Under the pieces are notes generated by a model that was given only the letters and a program-made list of their open reading frames with translations, was not told where the DNA came from and did no database searches. The position numbers were made by a program, and so were the translations under genes. A stretch of DNA of 64,000 nucleotides from a virus: positions 1 through 64,000 of the IMG/VR virus record IMGVR_UViG_3300029959_000014. The stretch is one strand, 5' to 3'. Positions 32,455 through 63,762 of this stretch are shown here, piece by piece. How positions within the stretch are numbered: position 1 is the first letter of the stretch; each line of letters starts with the position of its first letter.

Positions 32455-32511
32455 ACTAGTATGTTAGCGTTAGTATTATAAAATAGTTATTATAAAGAAT
32501 AGGTGGTGTGG

Positions 32512-35234: not shown

Positions 35235-36122
35235 TTAAGTTGAATTCATATCTTCTAATTTGTTCTGGTAATAGGTGAAGATTGAACGTGGTGGAGACAT
35301 GAAATGTTTACGGGCTTCAGTGCTTACTTGTTTGGCAATTATCGGCATTGCGATCTTGACGTTTTTGAATTGTTCGGGGCCGATATCAGCAAGAACTTTA
35401 TCCAATGCCCCATAAATTTCACTGTCAGAAAGTGGTGGTAGTTCGACTTTATTGGGATCTATATCCTTTGGGATCTTATCAAGTTTTAAAGTATCGTGCT
35501 TTTCCTTGACGGCTAACAATCCATTGTTGTATGATGGTTTGTATGACTTGATTACAAAGCCCTCGATGTCTTGATGATCACGAAGCATACTGTCTCTGTA
35601 GGTGTAGAGATCTTCGATGCTGGTGTGTCTGGTGATTACCTGAACATCGATACATGGGATGTTACTGTGATGGCATTGTTGATGAAGGAAGTTATAGTGG
35701 GTGAATTGCTGGGTCTTGGAAGTCCATAGATCGAATGCTACGAATGATGGTTGATCATAGGTTTTAATACGGGTGGGAGATCGTCCTTTGGCCATCAACT
35801 CACCATAAAGGATGTAGTTATTACTCCAGTTACGAGCATCGAGTAATAGTTCCTTGATATTTTCTAGAAGTTGACCATCATCAATGCTTCGCGCAATACT
35901 CAAAAATGATGGATCTGCAATTGGTTGATTACGAGATCCCATTATGAGATTGTCTTCGTTGTCAAGATAGAAGCGAACATTGCTACCATCATGTTTAGGT
36001 TGCCAGAGAAGTTCTTCACCTAATATCATACCGGGACCAGGATACAATAATGCTATGCGATTGAGATGTGGATAAGTGATGTCACCGAGATTTAATGATA
36101 CTTGTTCTTTAACGTTAAACAT
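35235..36122 (-). CDS. ATP-dependent nucleotidyltransferase ligase (RNA/DNA ligase family)
   Basis: Motif I KHDGSN, motif III YILYGEL, motif IV EGFVIKSY and motif V LAVKEK are present in canonical order. Confidence 0.55.
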   Translation of the reverse strand: MFNVKEQVSLNLGDITYPHLNRIALLYPGPGMILGEELLWQPKHDGSNVRFYLDNEDNLIMGSRNQPIADPSFLSIARSIDDGQLLENIKELLLDARNWSNNYILYGELMAKGRSPTRIKTYDQPSFVAFDLWTSKTQQFTHYNFLHQQCHHSNIPCIDVQVITRHTSIEDLYTYRDSMLRDHQDIEGFVIKSYKPSYNNGLLAVKEKHDTLKLDKIPKDIDPNKVELPPLSDSEIYGALDKVLADIGPEQFKNVKIAMPIIAKQVSTEARKHFMSPPRSIFTYYQNKLEDMNST

Positions 36123-36640
36123 TAAGTGAACAAATATAATTTACCATATATAAAGAAAGAGATAAAAGTTATATAATAGAAATGTTAAAAAGGTGTCAAA
36201 TAGTTTGTTATAATCGTGTGATGGGATTGATCCATCAAATGATTTAGTGTGGTAATAAGAGAAAATCACGAAAATAATTATACATACATGTAACTCACCG
36301 GCTTCATTACTAGAATTATCCGGCCAAAAATATTAGATGGTGATGAACCAAGTCTACTATCAACGTGTGGATGGTTTGGAAATTTAATGATGGAGTCCAC
36401 ATCAGCCCATCGTATACCGCCATTCCATTAAGCGGTCAAGTTTGTTGTAATGTGATCATTGTGGAAGACTATTCATTGTTTATCCACATGTTTTAAACTT
36501 CTACCCGTGATAGCCGTAAATAACTCAATTGTTATCATTGTGGTCATCTATCTACCGTTTGTTTATTGACCAGCAGGGAAGTTCTAGTCTTGCATGAAGT
36601 TACCTTCATTCTGCACATTACATAACTTGTTTGCATTCTC

Positions 36641-36700
36641 GATATCACTCCCATGCCTGAATGCTAGGCCGAACGTCACGTTTGATATCCAACGTCAACC
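36641..36700. repeat. ~60-nt direct repeat unit 1 (GATATCACTCC...GTCACGTTTGATATCCAACG)
   Basis: A second copy lies at 36860-36915 and flanks the tRNA-like element. Confidence 0.45.
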
Positions 36701-36768
36701 GCTTATACTGTTTTTATCGGTTGAAATATCCTACAGGGCATCCATAATAAATGGTTGCTCAAGTTAGC

Positions 36769-36849
36769 AGTGGATTGATGATGGTGAAAGGAATTGAACC
36801 TTCGTTAACCAACATTAGACGATAGCAAACCGGTCAGACTATCGTAGTA
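36769..36849 (-). ncRNA. tRNA-like element a (7/7-bp acceptor GATGGTG/CACCATC plus T-arm GAAGG-TTCAATT-CCTTT, 81 nt)
   Basis: It has a perfect acceptor helix and a canonical T-loop, but the 49-nt interior (containing a 7-bp ACGATAG/CTATCGT stem) does not give a canonical D-arm and anticodon-arm fold. Confidence 0.4.
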
Positions 36850-36859
36850 ATACACCATC

Positions 36860-36915
36860 AATACCTTCTGATATCACTCCTACGGCGAAGGCAACCTGCG
36901 AGTCACGTTTGATAC
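36860..36915. repeat. ~60-nt direct repeat unit 2
   Basis: It pairs with 36641-36700. Confidence 0.45.
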
Positions 36916-37187
36916 CCAACGCACCAGATCGAGCGGTTTCACCTGGTGAATCACATTCCAACTTAATGGACTTGCCGCAGTGCTGATAACCAGCAATAGG
37001 AATTGCACCTATATCTCCACCAGGAACGATGGTGAGATTCTGTTACTCCATGCTGGTTAGAACTCTTTGTTCGGTCACCCAATTTGTTTCCATGATAACG
37101 CTCGTGGATAATCGCAGTAAACTTCCAAGCGGTAAATTCTGTTTATTCGTGCACTAATAAACTTATTGGTGGGTTTACTTCCACCTA

Positions 37188-37251
37188 TAACTGATGGGTG
37201 GATTCGAACCAACCCGTTGCACACCCATTGTGTCATCGGTTACGGTTGCCA
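37188..37251 (-). ncRNA. tRNA-like minihelix b (acceptor AACCGAT/ATCAGTT, T-arm GGTTCGAATCC)
   Basis: It has a T-loop TTCGAAT and a 6/7 acceptor pairing. Only ~19 nt separate the 5' acceptor strand from the T-arm, so the D and anticodon arms are absent. Confidence 0.4.
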
Positions 37252-37290
37252 CATTTGCGCAGATGTGGTTTACAACCATTTTATCAGGTT
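37243..37290. repeat. 48-nt direct repeat, copy 1
   Basis: It contains a CCACAT-loop8-ATGTGG hairpin and supplies the 5' acceptor strand of minihelix b. It is 47/48 identical to 37551-37598. Confidence 0.6.
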
Positions 37291-37403
37291 TTGGATTTGT
37301 TCCTGGGAAATTAAACCTGCAAAACGCCCACGGTTAACGAGCGTGCCTCGGCGGTTTAACAACTTTGATAATGGGGTTCTAAACCTGCTGAATTGAGACC
37401 CAC

Positions 37404-37461
37404 ATAACCAGTAGTGGATTCGAACCACTCCTCTTTCTCTTCCACCCGTCTGTGGCTGGTT
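37404..37461 (-). ncRNA. tRNA-like minihelix c (perfect T-arm AGTGG-TTCGAAT-CCACT)
   Basis: It has a 5/5 T-stem, an acceptor AACCAGC/ACTGGTT (6/7) and an internal CCAC-AGACGG-GTGG hairpin. Confidence 0.4.
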
Positions 37462-37510
37462 ACTCTCCTTACTCTCGCCTGGGATTTTTATCTCGCAGAG
37501 GATTTCAGGG

Positions 37511-37559
37511 ATAACCGATTGGGGATTCGAACCCCTTAATTCCCATTTGGTTTATCGGT
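37511..37559 (-). ncRNA. tRNA-like minihelix d (acceptor AACCGAT/ATCGGTT 7/7, T-arm GGGG-TTCGAAT-CCCC)
   Basis: It has a perfect 7-bp acceptor and a 17-nt linker to the T-arm. Its 5' strand lies within the 48-nt repeat copy 2. Confidence 0.45.
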
Positions 37560-37598
37560 TACGGTTGCCACATTTGCGCAGATGTGGTTTACAACCAT
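37551..37598. repeat. 48-nt direct repeat, copy 2
   Basis: It is a near-identical copy of 37243-37290. It is followed by a GNRA-capped hairpin GTTGGGATT-GCAA-AATCCAAC. Confidence 0.6.
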
Positions 37599-37784
37599 TT
37601 ATCCGTTTGTTGGATTTGCAATCCCAACCAGGCGTCTTACATTCCCTGTCACCTGCATTCCATCGTCGTAAAGACTTGCCTGCAGGGAAACCATCATACA
37701 AGATTTGACCTTGCACGATGGCTAATTCACTTACCGGGTCATCACTCCCGTATACATTATATTACACGTAATATTATTTAATAG

Positions 37785-38033
37785 TTACGAAATAATACTA
37801 GTAACCTCACCGTTATTGTGAAACGTATCAACGGCTTGATCATTGTATTCAATTACTTCGGCAAATACTTGATCACTTGGCACATAATCAGCCATAGCAT
37901 ATTTCATGGTCTTAAGACATTGTTTGACACTTTTGAATACAATGGCTTCCTCACGGTGATGAGCAAATCCTTTACGACCATAATAGATGGTATTGTTGTT
38001 TTCAGTGATCCACATAATTACTAGTGATGTCAT
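37785..38033 (-). CDS. hypothetical small protein
   Basis: It has a TTTTTATAATA box 20 nt upstream. Confidence 0.45.
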   Translation of the reverse strand: MTSLVIMWITENNNTIYYGRKGFAHHREEAIVFKSVKQCLKTMKYAMADYVPSDQVFAEVIEYNDQAVDTFHNNGEVTSIIS

Positions 38034-39033: not shown

Positions 39034-39091
39034 ATGATAATATACGAGTTAATATTATAAAATAGTTACTAGTAGATCTAATACTGAAATC

Positions 39092-52855: not shown

Positions 52856-52865
52856 TATTATAAAA
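52856..52865 (-). promoter_or_regulatory. TTTTATAATA box
   Basis: It lies 21 nt upstream of the ATG of 52457-52834, with CATACTAGTA at the start. Confidence 0.55.
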
Positions 52866-53070
52866 TAGGTTGGTTTTGTTATTAGATACGCTCATCAATG
52901 AATTTCATCAAATGATCTTTATTGCAAAAATGATGAGTTACATCCATATGAAGTCTTTTATCCCCCCACCAATAATGACATCTTCGCCCATACTTACATA
53001 GTAATAACTAATATTGACATCGGGGATCACTTCCCCACAATAGTCACATTTAGTTACATACATTGTATGC

Positions 53071-60915: not shown

Positions 60916-61073
60916 ACTAGGGTTTACCTCTTAATCTTCATCGTATGCACACATCACACGATCTTTGTCATGTGTCTGGAAATGTTCACAACCTTCACAT
61001 CGTTCAATACGGACTTGATGCCGCATTTCAGGACAATCAACAACGATAATAGTTTGAATGATTCTTGTCATAT

Positions 61074-61337
61074 TTAGTAATTCTCCTTCATGATCATTTT
61101 ATCGTGGATACCAGGATTGTAGTCAAGGGTAAACAAATTATGGTTATAATCATCTACAGTTTTTCCTTTGATTGTTTTATCATATTCCCATGATAATTTA
61201 CCATCAATTACCACAGGTTCGTAAATACTTACTCCAGTCGGAGTATCACAAATTTTACACCACCTGCAGTGTGGTCCATCATCAGTTATCCACTTGAATC
61301 TTACAATGTAAAAATAACGTTTTCCAATTTTAACCAT
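61074..61337 (-). CDS. small Cys-containing protein
   Basis: It has HCRWCKIC and AGGTAAACTCTATT before the ATG. Confidence 0.35.
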   Translation of the reverse strand: MVKIGKRYFYIVRFKWITDDGPHCRWCKICDTPTGVSIYEPVVIDGKLSWEYDKTIKGKTVDDYNHNLFTLDYNPGIHDKMIMKENY

Positions 61338-61573
61338 AATAGAGTTTACCTCTTGGTTTTAGAAATGTTCTGTAATCGATTCTAAAAATGTTAGGAAGGT
61401 GTGAACTTCGCTAACATTAAATATCTCATTGGATATTTTGTCGGGGCACGTAACGGATGAATATCTTGCAGTAAAAGATGAGAAAGGATTACAAGGTTTG
61501 TTTGGTAGTTGTTTACGATGTTACCAGCATACCAAGATAATGGATAGATTTGACCTATCCAACTATTAAAATG

Positions 61574-61780
61574 TTAACTAAATTCAAATTTCACAACTTC
61601 AGAAATATTGTATCCAACCTGTCTTACGATATCTGTATTCTCATCATACCACTGAATTAATATTCTTGATGTTTGATTCGTTTCATTCATATCATAAGCA
61701 TGAAGTTTGTACCCATCAGGAGTGTAAACTTCTTTACTTCCATCCTTAAGATAGATTTCAACCTTTTTGTAATCTTTCAT
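61574..61780 (-). CDS. small hypothetical protein
   Basis: It is a co-oriented ORF. Confidence 0.3.
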   Translation of the reverse strand: MKDYKKVEIYLKDGSKEVYTPDGYKLHAYDMNETNQTSRILIQWYDENTDIVRQVGYNISEVVKFEFS

Positions 61781-61784
61781 GGTG

Positions 61785-61982
61785 TCACTTGATTTTAATT
61801 CCGAAGGATTCCATCATACATTGTTTGTATTCTTCGTGTGAAAGATATGTATTAGTAGATAATGATTCAACATTTTCAATTTGTTCGTTATTTCCAACCT
61901 GAATTACATAATCATATGCTTCGACAATAGCATCATCTTCAAATTGATTAAGAAATTCTTTTACTTCTTTAACAGTTACCAT
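61785..61982 (-). CDS. small acidic protein
   Basis: It has GGAAAACCCCTAGTT before the ATG. Confidence 0.3.
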   Translation of the reverse strand: MVTVKEVKEFLNQFEDDAIVEAYDYVIQVGNNEQIENVESLSTNTYLSHEEYKQCMMESFGIKIK

Positions 61983-62648
61983 AACTAGGGGTTTTCCTTT
62001 TTAATTTAGTGTTCTGAAAACTTTACTGGAAGATAATGAGATGGAATGAACCAACTCACTACCAGTATATTGAAAGGAGATAACCATGAGGAGACAAACA
62101 TGAGGATTTCGTTTACCCGGATCGGATGGAATGTGTCTATGCCAGAATTAACCCGGTTTGGTAGTTTTTTACATTGATACCAGCAATCATGAGTATGGCA
62201 GGAGTTGCACCTGCGTAGGACTGACCACTTGAGTTTGAATCAAGCCCGGTTTCTGCTTCGGTACATACTCAATTAGTAATTTTACCGTGAGCAGTTTAAC
62301 GATCATTATGATCTTGAAACTGTCACGTGGTAAATACACGTTCACTGATCCTTGGTGTTTGGCCTATGTAGATTAGAGTCCGGGCGATCAGTTTCCCTTT
62401 CTACTCAATCCCATTATTGTTACAAGATTTTAGGTGTAAAAGTTTTAGGCATTTTTGCACCTGTTACCTTGCTACACTATAAGATTGATCTGCTGACTAT
62501 ATAATGATTTTGTTTTGATAGTTTTAGAAGTAGTGGATCAATGATCAGAGTTATATACTATTGCTTTTGTTATGAAAAATGTAACGGAAAGATTGTTAGT
62601 GCGCAAGAAAAGAGTGGTGGTGATTACAAGGGAATTTAAGCACTGAAA

Positions 62649-63098
62649 TTACTCTGCACTGCATTCCATTGGATTAGGGATAATCTCTACTGTGAACTTT
62701 GGAATCTCCTCACGGGTATTTGCTTGGAGTGCATCCATAAACCACTGTTCAAGTTCTACGTGCTTGGCTTTCTCGGCCTGACAGATTGCCTTTTCTTGTG
62801 AGCGACATGAAGTAATGATTGGATCAGCATTATATTGTTCATCGAAATCTGGAAGTTTCATGATATCTCGAAGATCGCCTTCGCTTATTTCTTTTCGTTC
62901 ATGAACTGGAAGACCCGTTGCCTGAAGTTTTTTATAAATATCACCATAAGTAGCACTCTTAATCTGCTTTTTACGATCATTCTTCTGTGCAACGATTGGT
63001 GTGCGAACGTTGCTGTAGTAGGTTGATACCTTGGAACTGTAGATGTTGCGAAGTTCCTTGATCTGGGCTACTGATAGCCTTGTTTTGCTTGCTGTCAT
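62649..63098 (-). CDS. hypothetical basic protein
   Basis: It has a promoter box 21 nt upstream. Confidence 0.45.
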   Translation of the reverse strand: MTASKTRLSVAQIKELRNIYSSKVSTYYSNVRTPIVAQKNDRKKQIKSATYGDIYKKLQATGLPVHERKEISEGDLRDIMKLPDFDEQYNADPIITSCRSQEKAICQAEKAKHVELEQWFMDALQANTREEIPKFTVEIIPNPMECSAE

Positions 63099-63118
63099 AA
63101 CAGTAATGTTAGTGTGGA

Positions 63119-63128
63119 TATTATAAAA
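63119..63128 (-). promoter_or_regulatory. TTTTATAATA box
   Basis: It lies 20 nt upstream of the ATG of 62649-63098. Confidence 0.55.
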
Positions 63129-63154
63129 GAGTTTTGATAGTCAATCTACTAGTA

Positions 63155-63559
63155 TTATATTATACCTTCTAGAACTAGATCACAAAGAGCATCACATCGT
63201 TTAAGCATGATATGTTCACGCGGGGACCATTCAAAGTTTATGGTATTGAATTTTTTAATGATGTATTGAACTTGAGCATGTAAAGGTTTTAAATGTTCAC
63301 TTTTAACCTGATATTTTCCTGTGATTTGGAATATAGTTAACTGACTATCACTTGTTAATGTAAGATCTTTAATTCCTCCTGCTAATGCCGATGTAAGACA
63401 TAGGATGATACTAGTATATTCAGACTGATTATTACTATAGTTCCCAAAATAAAAGGAGTTGCTATATACCTCTTCATTTTTATCATTACAAATTATAAAG
63501 GCTCCAGCACCATGAGAATTATTCATTCTACTTCCTCCATCAGCGTATGCATAAAACAT
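63155..63559 (-). CDS. rnhA: RNase H1-type ribonuclease H
   Basis: The DEDD residues sit in YADGGS, NNQSEYTSII, LTSDSQ and CDALCD, with RNase H1-like spacing. Confidence 0.8.
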   Translation of the reverse strand: MFYAYADGGSRMNNSHGAGAFIICNDKNEEVYSNSFYFGNYSNNQSEYTSIILCLTSALAGGIKDLTLTSDSQLTIFQITGKYQVKSEHLKPLHAQVQYIIKKFNTINFEWSPREHIMLKRCDALCDLVLEGII

Positions 63560-63633
63560 AATGGTATTGTATGTTTGGGATTTTATTTATACATTGGTAA
63601 TGGTGGAATTTTAAATATTTATAATTACCTGTT

Positions 63634-63762
63634 TGTGCACATCCCAGACAGAATCGGGTTTCCTGTCAATTCTCTTCTGTTTGAGGTGAATTGTTGATGG
63701 AAGTATACCGAAATGTTTATATAATAGTAGTTACATATATTATTGTGCACATCCCAGACAGA
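63634..63762. repeat. pair of 20-nt direct repeats TTGTGCACATCCCAGACAGA spaced 109 nt apart in an ORF-free terminal region
   Basis: Exact copies occur at 63634-63652 and 63743-63762. Each is preceded by a TATA-like AT stretch. Confidence 0.5.

Follow-up and report, generated by a model that had tools for sequence, protein, structure and literature searches.

A viral tRNA-Leu(CAA) gene whose 3' trailer is duplicated, with a T-arm-like piece, beyond a two-gene cassette

Results

Gene content of the locus

The window analysed here, positions 1 to 64,000 (64,000 nt) of the IMG/VR virus record IMGVR_UViG_3300029959_000014, belongs to a virus-like metagenomic genome and has nearly all of its genes on the minus strand. 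Near its right end, two blocks lacking sizeable open reading frames (ORFs) bracket a cassette of two small genes. We find that the larger block contains a genuine tRNA-Leu(CAA) gene, which is an RNA of a standard class, and that the element repeated in both blocks is the 3' trailer of this tRNA, copied along with a T-arm/acceptor-like piece. Read on the minus strand, the locus runs from a 149-aa gene through a hairpin-rich leader of 377 nt, tRNA-Leu, its trailer of about 35 nt and a spacer of 170 nt to the 65-aa gene; the 68-aa gene, a T-arm-type hairpin with an acceptor-like strand, the trailer again, a spacer of 160 nt and an 87-aa gene follow (Table 1).

Table 1. Positions of features at the tRNA-Leu locus, listed in minus-strand order.
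Feature	Position	Strand	Basis
Promoter-like motif ACTATTTTATAATA, nearest strong copy, upstream of 149-aa gene	63119..63132	minus	motif scan
Non-coding leader between 149-aa gene and tRNA-Leu, two long hairpins	62272..62490	minus	minimum free energy (MFE)
tRNA-Leu(CAA), CCA not encoded	62190..62270	minus	ARAGORN, Rfam RF00005
Anticodon arm CTTGA-TTCAAAC-TCAAG, anticodon CAA at 62237->62235	62228..62244	minus	tRNA-model alignment, ARAGORN drawing
T arm GCAGG-TGCAACT-CCTGC of tRNA-Leu	62198..62214	minus	tRNA-model alignment, ARAGORN drawing, T-arm scan
Trailer copy 2, TGAT-TGCTGGTATCAATGTAAAAAACTACCAAACC, directly 3' of discriminator base	62154..62189	minus	repeat family D1, pattern test, register alignment
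65-aa ORF, cassette first gene	61785..61982	minus	ORF list; called as gene on independent assemblies
68-aa ORF, cassette second gene	61574..61780	minus	ORF list; exhaustive HMMER search
Orphan minihelix-like hairpin, AAUAG/AUUAU pairing extends T-arm-type stem	61537..61566	minus	T-arm scan, fold, terminator scan
T-arm-type stem-loop GATAG-GTCAAAT-CTATC	61559->61543	minus	T-arm scan
Acceptor-like strand CATTATC	61542->61536	minus	tRNA register
Trailer copy 1, T-TGGTA-TGCTGGTAACATCGTAAACAACTACCAAACAAACC	61495..61535	minus	repeat family D1, pattern test, register alignment
Predicted multi-hairpin 5' region before 87-aa gene, downstream of trailer copy 1	61373..61494	minus	MFE

The tRNA-Leu(CAA) gene

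The only tRNA that ARAGORN predicts in the window with default settings is a minus-strand tRNA-Leu(caa) at 62189-62271. A focused 2.2-kb search with Rfam RF00005 aligns 62270->62190 to the full model (positions 1-71) at 48.9 bits, above the gathering score of 29 (E 6.7e-9). A whole-window 64-kb Rfam run at the gathering threshold omitted this 48.9-bit match, presumably through its speed filters. The span of 81 nt (62270->62190) is drawn by ARAGORN as a cloverleaf, with the acceptor stem GAGTATG/CATACTC and a discriminator A (A73). Features of tRNA-Leu identity are present, namely the anticodon CAA, A73 and a 14-nt variable region whose stem has just 2 bp; of the leucine codons in the larger ORFs, 15% are UUG. 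The elbow departs from consensus (G18, G19, U54-U55-C56, A58): GG is missing from the D loop, AGCAGAAA, and the T loop UGCAACU carries G at position 55 and keeps C56 and A58.

An earlier, sequence-only reading of the window had proposed a structured-RNA locus here, on the strength of two hairpins and a repeated element in GC-richer, ORF-free DNA. Both hairpins exist in the sequence, the first at 62228-62244 rather than at about 62235-62255 and the second at 62198-62214, and ARAGORN and Rfam assign them differently: the CTTGA-TTCAAAC-TCAAG stem-loop that had been called T-arm-like is the anticodon arm of tRNA-Leu, and the true T arm is the GCAGG-N7-CCTGC hairpin. An RNA gene is thus present, as had been proposed, but by the same two programs it is a tRNA and not a new structured RNA. 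Group I/II introns, tmRNA, 6S RNA and RNase P had been suggested as candidates; only tRNA matches were returned at E<=10 for 61000-63200 on both strands, and ARAGORN found no tmRNA.

The blocks themselves, 61340-61573 (block 1) and 61983-62648 (block 2), do lack ORFs of at least 60 aa on both strands, the longest being 46, 43, 52 and 50 aa. Their supposed enrichment in G and C holds for block 2, whose GC content is 0.377 (86th percentile), but not for block 1, which at 0.342 (55th percentile) is close to the window mean, 0.337. Within block 2 it is the tRNA (0.50) and about 150 nt upstream of it (0.40) that raise the value; the distal 228 nt of the block have a GC content of 0.32. What looked like a mysterious hairpin-bearing GC-rich gap is therefore reannotated as a viral tRNA gene with a duplicated tail.

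Trailer and T-arm-like hairpin beyond the cassette

The repeat described in the sequence-only reading proved genuine and had been placed correctly to within a few bases. Its copies, GTTTGGTAGTTGTTTACGATGTTACCAGCA at 61500-61529 (copy 1) and GTTTGGTAGTTTTTTACATTGATACCAGCA at 62156-62185 (copy 2), are 30 nt long, 87% identical and 656 nt apart; the degenerate repeat pattern matches the window twice, against 0.00 expected from 100 shuffles, and these are the only two copies in 81.7 kb (the window plus 17.7 kb of flanks). The conserved box begins 4 nt past the tRNA-Leu discriminator on the minus strand. Local alignment of the two copies extends over 58 nt, taking in T loop, 3' T stem, acceptor strand and box, and scores 42 compared with 20.2 +/- 2.6 in shuffles (maximum 34).

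Set in the tRNA register without gaps (Table 2), copy 1 shows a 5-bp stem closed by G-C and a 7-nt loop, GTCAAAT, followed by CATTATC where tRNA-Leu has CATACTC. Three compensatory pair differences separate the two T stems. No 5' part of a tRNA accompanies copy 1, and ARAGORN found no second tRNA there with introns allowed and thresholds lowered to 80-90%, so copy 1 is a T-arm-type hairpin in tRNA register rather than a tRNA. We also considered and rejected a split or intron-containing tRNA around both genes: a GGTAGTG in the upstream spacer could pair with CATTATC, but no D or anticodon arm follows, and no match came from the Rfam intron models or from ARAGORN run with introns allowed.

Table 2. 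The two copies in ungapped tRNA register.
Segment	Copy 2 (tRNA-Leu)	Copy 1 (orphan)
T stem 5'	GCAGG	GATAG
T loop	TGCAACT	GTCAAAT
T stem 3'	CCTGC	CTATC
Acceptor strand	CATACTC	CATTATC
Discriminator position	A	T
Linker	TGAT-T	TGGTAT
Conserved box	GCTGGTATCAATGTAAAAAACTACCAAAC	GCTGGTAACATCGTAAACAACTACCAAAC

A strict T-arm scan (5-bp stem, G-C closing pair, loop [TG][TG]C[AG]ANN) was applied to both strands of the window, 128 kb in all. It returned six hairpins, every one on the minus strand and at either 61.5-62.2 kb or 36.8-37.7 kb, compared with 0.67 +/- 0.79 expected from simulations; since all six fall in the two tRNA-like loci of this genome, copy 1 is taken to be tRNA-derived. Its hairpin starts 7 nt past the stop codon of the 68-aa ORF and folds as a 13-bp bulged minihelix (-10.1 kcal/mol, z -3.6). 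A terminator scan flags this hairpin, with the tail TTATCTTGGT; the tRNA-Leu T arm and both trailer hairpins have no U-tract.

Identity between the copies is 25/29 in the box and 13/25 in the tRNA-derived part (Fisher p=0.008), the latter having P=0.009 against composition. This difference argues for a hairpin and trailer that are maintained rather than decaying and, taken with the compensatory changes and the site right after a stop codon, suggests that the two are kept as one module. The stronger conservation of the trailer hints at a function in processing, termination or recombination. Allowing one indel, its first 13 nt (ATTGCTGGT-ATCA) match the 3' acceptor strand and flanking sequence of a tRNA-Asn-like element at 36997, the only other such match in the window (0.27 expected), and tRNA-Leu and that element have in common an unusual UGCAAYU T loop. 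The repeated unit thus appears to be built from the genome's own tRNA-like sequences. A role of the trailer as a gene-strand promoter was not supported, the promoter scan finding none on the minus strand in either copy.

The two-gene cassette

The sole family match of the 65-aa ORF is a weak one, to PHROG 14647 (E 0.0017). Exhaustive HMMER searching links the 68-aa ORF to two proteins, P0007 (E 2e-47, 34 repeat stretches) and P0009 (E 3.5e-7); having protein relatives, it is a real coding sequence and not the decayed 5' half of a tRNA, and no tRNA body is hidden in it. Neither cassette ORF has a Pfam match at the curated threshold or a recombinase domain. The C-terminal 30-40 residues of the 68-aa protein resemble a unit present 34 times in P0007 (3427 aa), and the same unit occurs six times in P0009 (708 aa), which carries Listeria-Bacteroides repeat domains.

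Two further sequence features were observed around the cassette. The 14-nt segments 61462-61475 and 62022-62035 form an inverted repeat, complementary at 13/14 positions, that could pair across the cassette in a minus-strand transcript; chance alone would give about 0.4 such pairs in that stretch. A tandem 14-nt duplication, AGGAGATAACCATG / AGGAGACAAACATG, at 62075-62102 on the plus strand resembles two ribosome-binding sites with start codons. It lies on the strand opposite to all neighbouring genes, and a 25-codon frame opened by its second unit runs into trailer copy 2 and ends there.

A second tRNA-like locus

The window holds another ORF-free block, 1.3 kb long (36500-37790, minus strand), that is full of tRNA-like pieces and adjoins the RNA ligase gene (35235-36122). 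Rfam reports a tRNA at 36859->36779 (32.3 bits) with an anticodon loop of 17 nt, which ARAGORN missed at default settings, and the weak tRNA-Asn-like element spans 37058->36987. A perfect 12-bp acceptor+T-arm minihelix with the loop GUCAAAU lies at 37721->37683 (z -6.2). Three reduced acceptor+T-arm elements of the form GUAACCNNN...T arm...NNNGGUUAU occupy 37.2-37.6 kb, two of them within an 89-nt direct repeat (37211-37299 / 37530-37618).

Genome setting and searches for relatives

The genome encodes PolB, a UvrD-type helicase, NAMPT, a RuvB-like ATPase, RNA ligase and RNase H, and the best match of its PolB among 50,697 phage records is only about 26% identical. Identical pieces were found in ENA ERZ27247097 (k141_387203, 91 kb), ENA ERZ27247099, JGI 3300027419, JGI 3300030493 and Logan SRR5248198. 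Contig k141_387203 aligns only with window positions <=7931 and >=55954, which indicates that the window comes from a more complete assembly; its coordinates imply that the genome is circular or permuted, with a size of about 139 kb if circular.

Relatives of the locus were sought at several levels. Against INPHARED (50,697 phage records), blastn with 2.3 kb of the locus and with tRNA-Leu gave nothing useful and no similar phage tRNA. A tblastn search with the 149-aa protein gave no match. Searches for related loci with the 149-aa protein, the RuvB-like protein and alignment A1 were likewise without a match. In protein homologue searches the 149-aa protein had a single 50% relative, carried by a 1.4-kb contig, the 87-aa protein matched nothing but itself, and RNase H gave short contigs only.

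Pattern scans with the correct spacing, two of viral contigs and one of genome contigs, gave 0, 2 and 11 matches, all attributed to chance because the flanking bases and any hairpin were absent; neither the tRNA-pattern scan nor a scan with GGTTCGAATCC-N6-GGTTAT revealed relatives. The 37 metagenome matches to CTGGTA-N6-GTAAANAACTACC, a pattern whose true spacing is N5, are irrelevant, most lying in one unrelated coding motif.

Discussion

A duplicated tRNA tail as a candidate punctuation or recombination module

A viral tRNA gene with a duplicated 3' fragment is an already known kind of feature. The reading that we favour, to which we assign a probability of roughly 0.55, is that tRNA-Leu(CAA) and an orphan paralog consisting of T arm, acceptor and trailer bracket the two-ORF cassette in direct orientation, and that the module would act as RNA punctuation and as a recombination substrate. 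Both copies would descend from duplicated tRNA or tRNA-like genes of the genome's own family, one of them losing its 5' part, or having it replaced, as the two-gene cassette came between them. The hairpin plus trailer may then have been kept at both sites as RNA punctuation, either a 3'-end/processing signal for tRNA-maturation enzymes or a weak terminator, that would end the tRNA precursor at copy 2 and the cassette mRNA at copy 1. The pair of direct repeats could also serve as a substrate for recombinational gain or loss of the cassette.

Several observations weigh against this reading. Extending the alignment past the 30-nt core gains only about 2 score units, so the T-arm homology rests mainly on structural register and not on sequence identity. 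The U-rich tail of the copy 1 hairpin is weak. The trailer hairpin TGGTA-N14-TACCA, rejected as a stable hairpin or independent RNA motif with z near 0 against shuffled sequence, is no more stable than shuffles in either copy (z -0.05 and -0.5) and has no U-tract after it. All other contigs carrying the proteins of the locus are 100% identical to the window, none of the collections searched yielded relatives, and with just two copies selection cannot be told from recent gene conversion. Finally, the tRNA-Leu lacks G18G19 and U55, and it is therefore not certain that it functions as a decoder.

More specifically, the orphan copy may be a working tRNA-derived "minihelix + trailer" module with which the virus would punctuate a polycistronic transcript. 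Host RNase P and RNase Z, or similar enzymes, would cut the T-arm/acceptor mimic, and either the processing site or the start of the message downstream would be set by the conserved 30-nt trailer; its family would include the 37721->37683 minihelix, whose GUCAAAU loop is the same, and the three elements at 37.2-37.6 kb. The reduced tRNA-like family might also provide decoys or spare parts against tRNA-targeting host defences. We regard this version as doubtful.

Alternative explanations and the evidence that bears on them

It could be argued that the locus holds new structured RNAs besides the tRNA, namely the leader of 219 nt as a stable, co-transcribed small RNA and a multi-hairpin element of about 120 nt before the 87-aa gene as a regulatory 5' untranslated region. 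The leader, 62272-62490, has an MFE of -54.8 kcal/mol (z -3.8 on the minus strand) and contains hairpins at 62405-62488 and 62277-62335, the latter ending 5 nt before tRNA-Leu, which taken alone reach z -5.2 and -5.5. The second region, 61338-61500 (163 nt), is strand-specific (minus strand z -3.3, plus strand z -1.6), and for both regions 0/200 shuffles were as stable. These two regions beat shuffles, but the repeat's own hairpin does not. Against new RNAs stand the absence of an Rfam match, the failure to find homologues and the fact that the leader folds better in antisense (z -4.7 on the plus strand), so that its strand cannot be assigned by folding. Moreover, z<=-3 is reached by 6/128 background windows of this genome (about 5%), which makes the flanking fold scores suggestive rather than decisive. 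Overall, additional RNAs seem rather unlikely to us.

Promoter evidence bears on a second alternative, in which the module would be a mobile regulatory cassette like the PeSLs of T4-type phages, "small, composite terminator/promoter sequences" near ORFan indels (PMC4122927), that is, a terminator stem-loop plus promoter by which homologous recombination shuffles the ORFan pair. The layout agrees, a stem-loop followed by a conserved box occurring twice around two ORFan genes in a neighbourhood of tiny unknown genes, and the plus strand of both copies carries TTTAC(G/A) with GATAAT or GAGTAT 17-18 nt further on, the copy 1 site being listed by the scan. On the gene strand, however, the scan found no sigma-70-like promoter in the trailers, and the best manual fits reach 3/6 in the -10 hexamer. 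The start codons are 150-170 nt off (about 170 and 160 nt past the trailers) instead of at the end of the element, the element occurs only twice in 81.7 kb, its hairpins are tRNA-derived and the trailer is unlike the genome's own motif, ACTATTTTATAATA. An origin of this kind is, in our view, unlikely.

The motif ACTATTTTATAATA itself has 14 matches with <=2 mismatches, all on the minus strand, against 3.7 expected. The copy upstream of the 149-aa gene (Table 1) is the likely start of the transcript that reaches tRNA-Leu, and a weaker look-alike, ACTATCAAAAC...CATTATAT, lies inside block 2 at 62499-62522 (repeat family D2). Other minus-strand sites include 52856-52869, 39053-39066, 32474-32487 and 37772-37785. 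The motif stands about 29 nt upstream of start codons that have no Shine-Dalgarno sequence and often have the start context CTAGTTATG. This spacing would also fit a TATA box with leaderless transcripts, and for that reason the motif does not settle whether the host is bacterial or archaeal.

The arrangement could instead be the footprint of a site-specific insertion at the T loop or 3' end of tRNA-Leu, where the incoming element restored the gene and displaced the original 3' fragment beyond the insert. The geometry fits, with an intact tRNA followed after 0.6 kb by a direct-orientation copy of its T arm, 3' acceptor strand and flank. Yet no integrase or recombinase lies between the repeats, only the 65- and 68-aa ORFs without a curated-threshold Pfam match, and the insert is about 10x smaller than typical islands. 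The tRNA-derived part is identical at only 13/25 positions, and copy 1 has both T-stem strands with compensatory changes, which a crossover in the T loop would not be expected to leave. We consider such a footprint improbable.

A replication origin or other DNA-level site, with the repeat as a protein-binding site (TGGTA/TACCA half-sites 14 bp apart) and the long inverted repeats as origin structure, appears very unlikely. In its favour, the cumulative G-C curve of a 73-kb extended window (the window plus the equivalent of 64001-73098) has its global minimum at 61985; left of it the skew averages about -0.15, and beyond 64 kb it is +0.3 to +0.48, with gene orientation mostly unchanged. TGGTA-N14-TACCA occurs 3x compared with 0.08 expected, and the inverted repeats of the leader fold equally well or better on the plus strand, as DNA-level palindromes would. 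The minimum is flat over 59.7-63 kb, however, and the curve does not climb steeply until near 63.75 kb, within another intergenic region; the skew reverses in a comparable way at 29-36 kb; the two repeats lie 656 bp apart with genes between them and form no iteron cluster; no initiator gene was recognised nearby; and the repeat is explained by tRNA ancestry. Two side observations may be added. It is at the other tRNA-like locus that the second reversed-skew block (29.4-36.4 kb) ends. On the plus strand, the 20-nt sequence TTGTGCACATCCCAGACAGA occurs as a perfect direct repeat at 63633-63652 and 63743-63762, 110 nt apart, in the intergenic region from which the RNase H gene and a plus-strand gene running off the window diverge.

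A family of short ORFs, which the sequence-only reading had named as the finding that would undo its RNA proposal, is highly improbable as the source of the conservation: FGSxL is encoded across the repeat by both plus-strand frames, 61429-61569 (46 aa) and 62046-62177 (43 aa), the minus-strand frames read AGNIVNNYQTNL and AGINVKNYQTGL, and AGGAG-N6-ATG motifs lie on the plus strand at 62075-62102 (family D13), but the frames are inconsistent, as their shared residues are only those that come from the repeated DNA, the plus-strand frames end differently (copy 2 within the repeat, copy 1 40 nt past it), copy 1 provides no start codon for the minus-strand frame and 3/4 core differences are non-synonymous in the minus-strand frame.

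The locus belongs to a deep-branching virus lineage that carries an unusual set of reduced tRNA-like elements and whose relatives were not found in the public collections searched. If the module is functional, the virus would be reusing a tRNA fragment as an RNA-processing or recombination signal around an orphan-gene cassette.

Comparison with known systems

Two of the systems that the locus resembles are arrangements in which a repeat stands on both sides of a gene block. The PeSL cassettes of T4-like phages (PMC4122927, PMC2839356) likewise have a stem-loop and box on both sides of ORFans and offer a plausible substrate for cassette gain or loss; here there is no recognisable gene-strand promoter and no adjacent Shine-Dalgarno sequence or start codon, only two copies occur, and the stem-loop derives from a tRNA T arm. 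The signature used by Islander, in which an integrated island has an intact tDNA at one end and a displaced 3' fragment at the other (PMC4383910), also involves a direct-orientation copy of the tRNA 3' part and flank beyond a gene block. In contrast to such islands, our locus has no integrase and an insert of about 0.6 kb, and its fragment is strongly diverged and retains a complete, self-complementary T arm.

As a tRNA gene, the locus is close to those of phages (the T4 cluster, the arrays of large phages), with a co-oriented cloverleaf among small genes of a large virus genome and no encoded CCA, but its elbow is atypical (no G18G19, G55) and it has an orphan paralog of its 3' part. Repeats downstream of the E. 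coli tyrT gene reiterate the 3' end of the tRNA. The tRNA 3' end and downstream sequence are reiterated here as well, in direct orientation, although as one extra copy beyond two protein genes rather than in tandem and at much lower identity. Punctuation by tRNA-like structures is known from mitochondrial tRNAs and from the mascRNA 3'-end signal of MALAT1, and acceptor/T-arm minihelices are substrates of RNase P, RNase Z and the CCA enzyme. Although its acceptor part is only 5 bp with a bulge, copy 1 would similarly place an acceptor-like and T-arm coaxial hairpin right after a coding sequence and, by analogy, may offer processing enzymes a site at which to cut.

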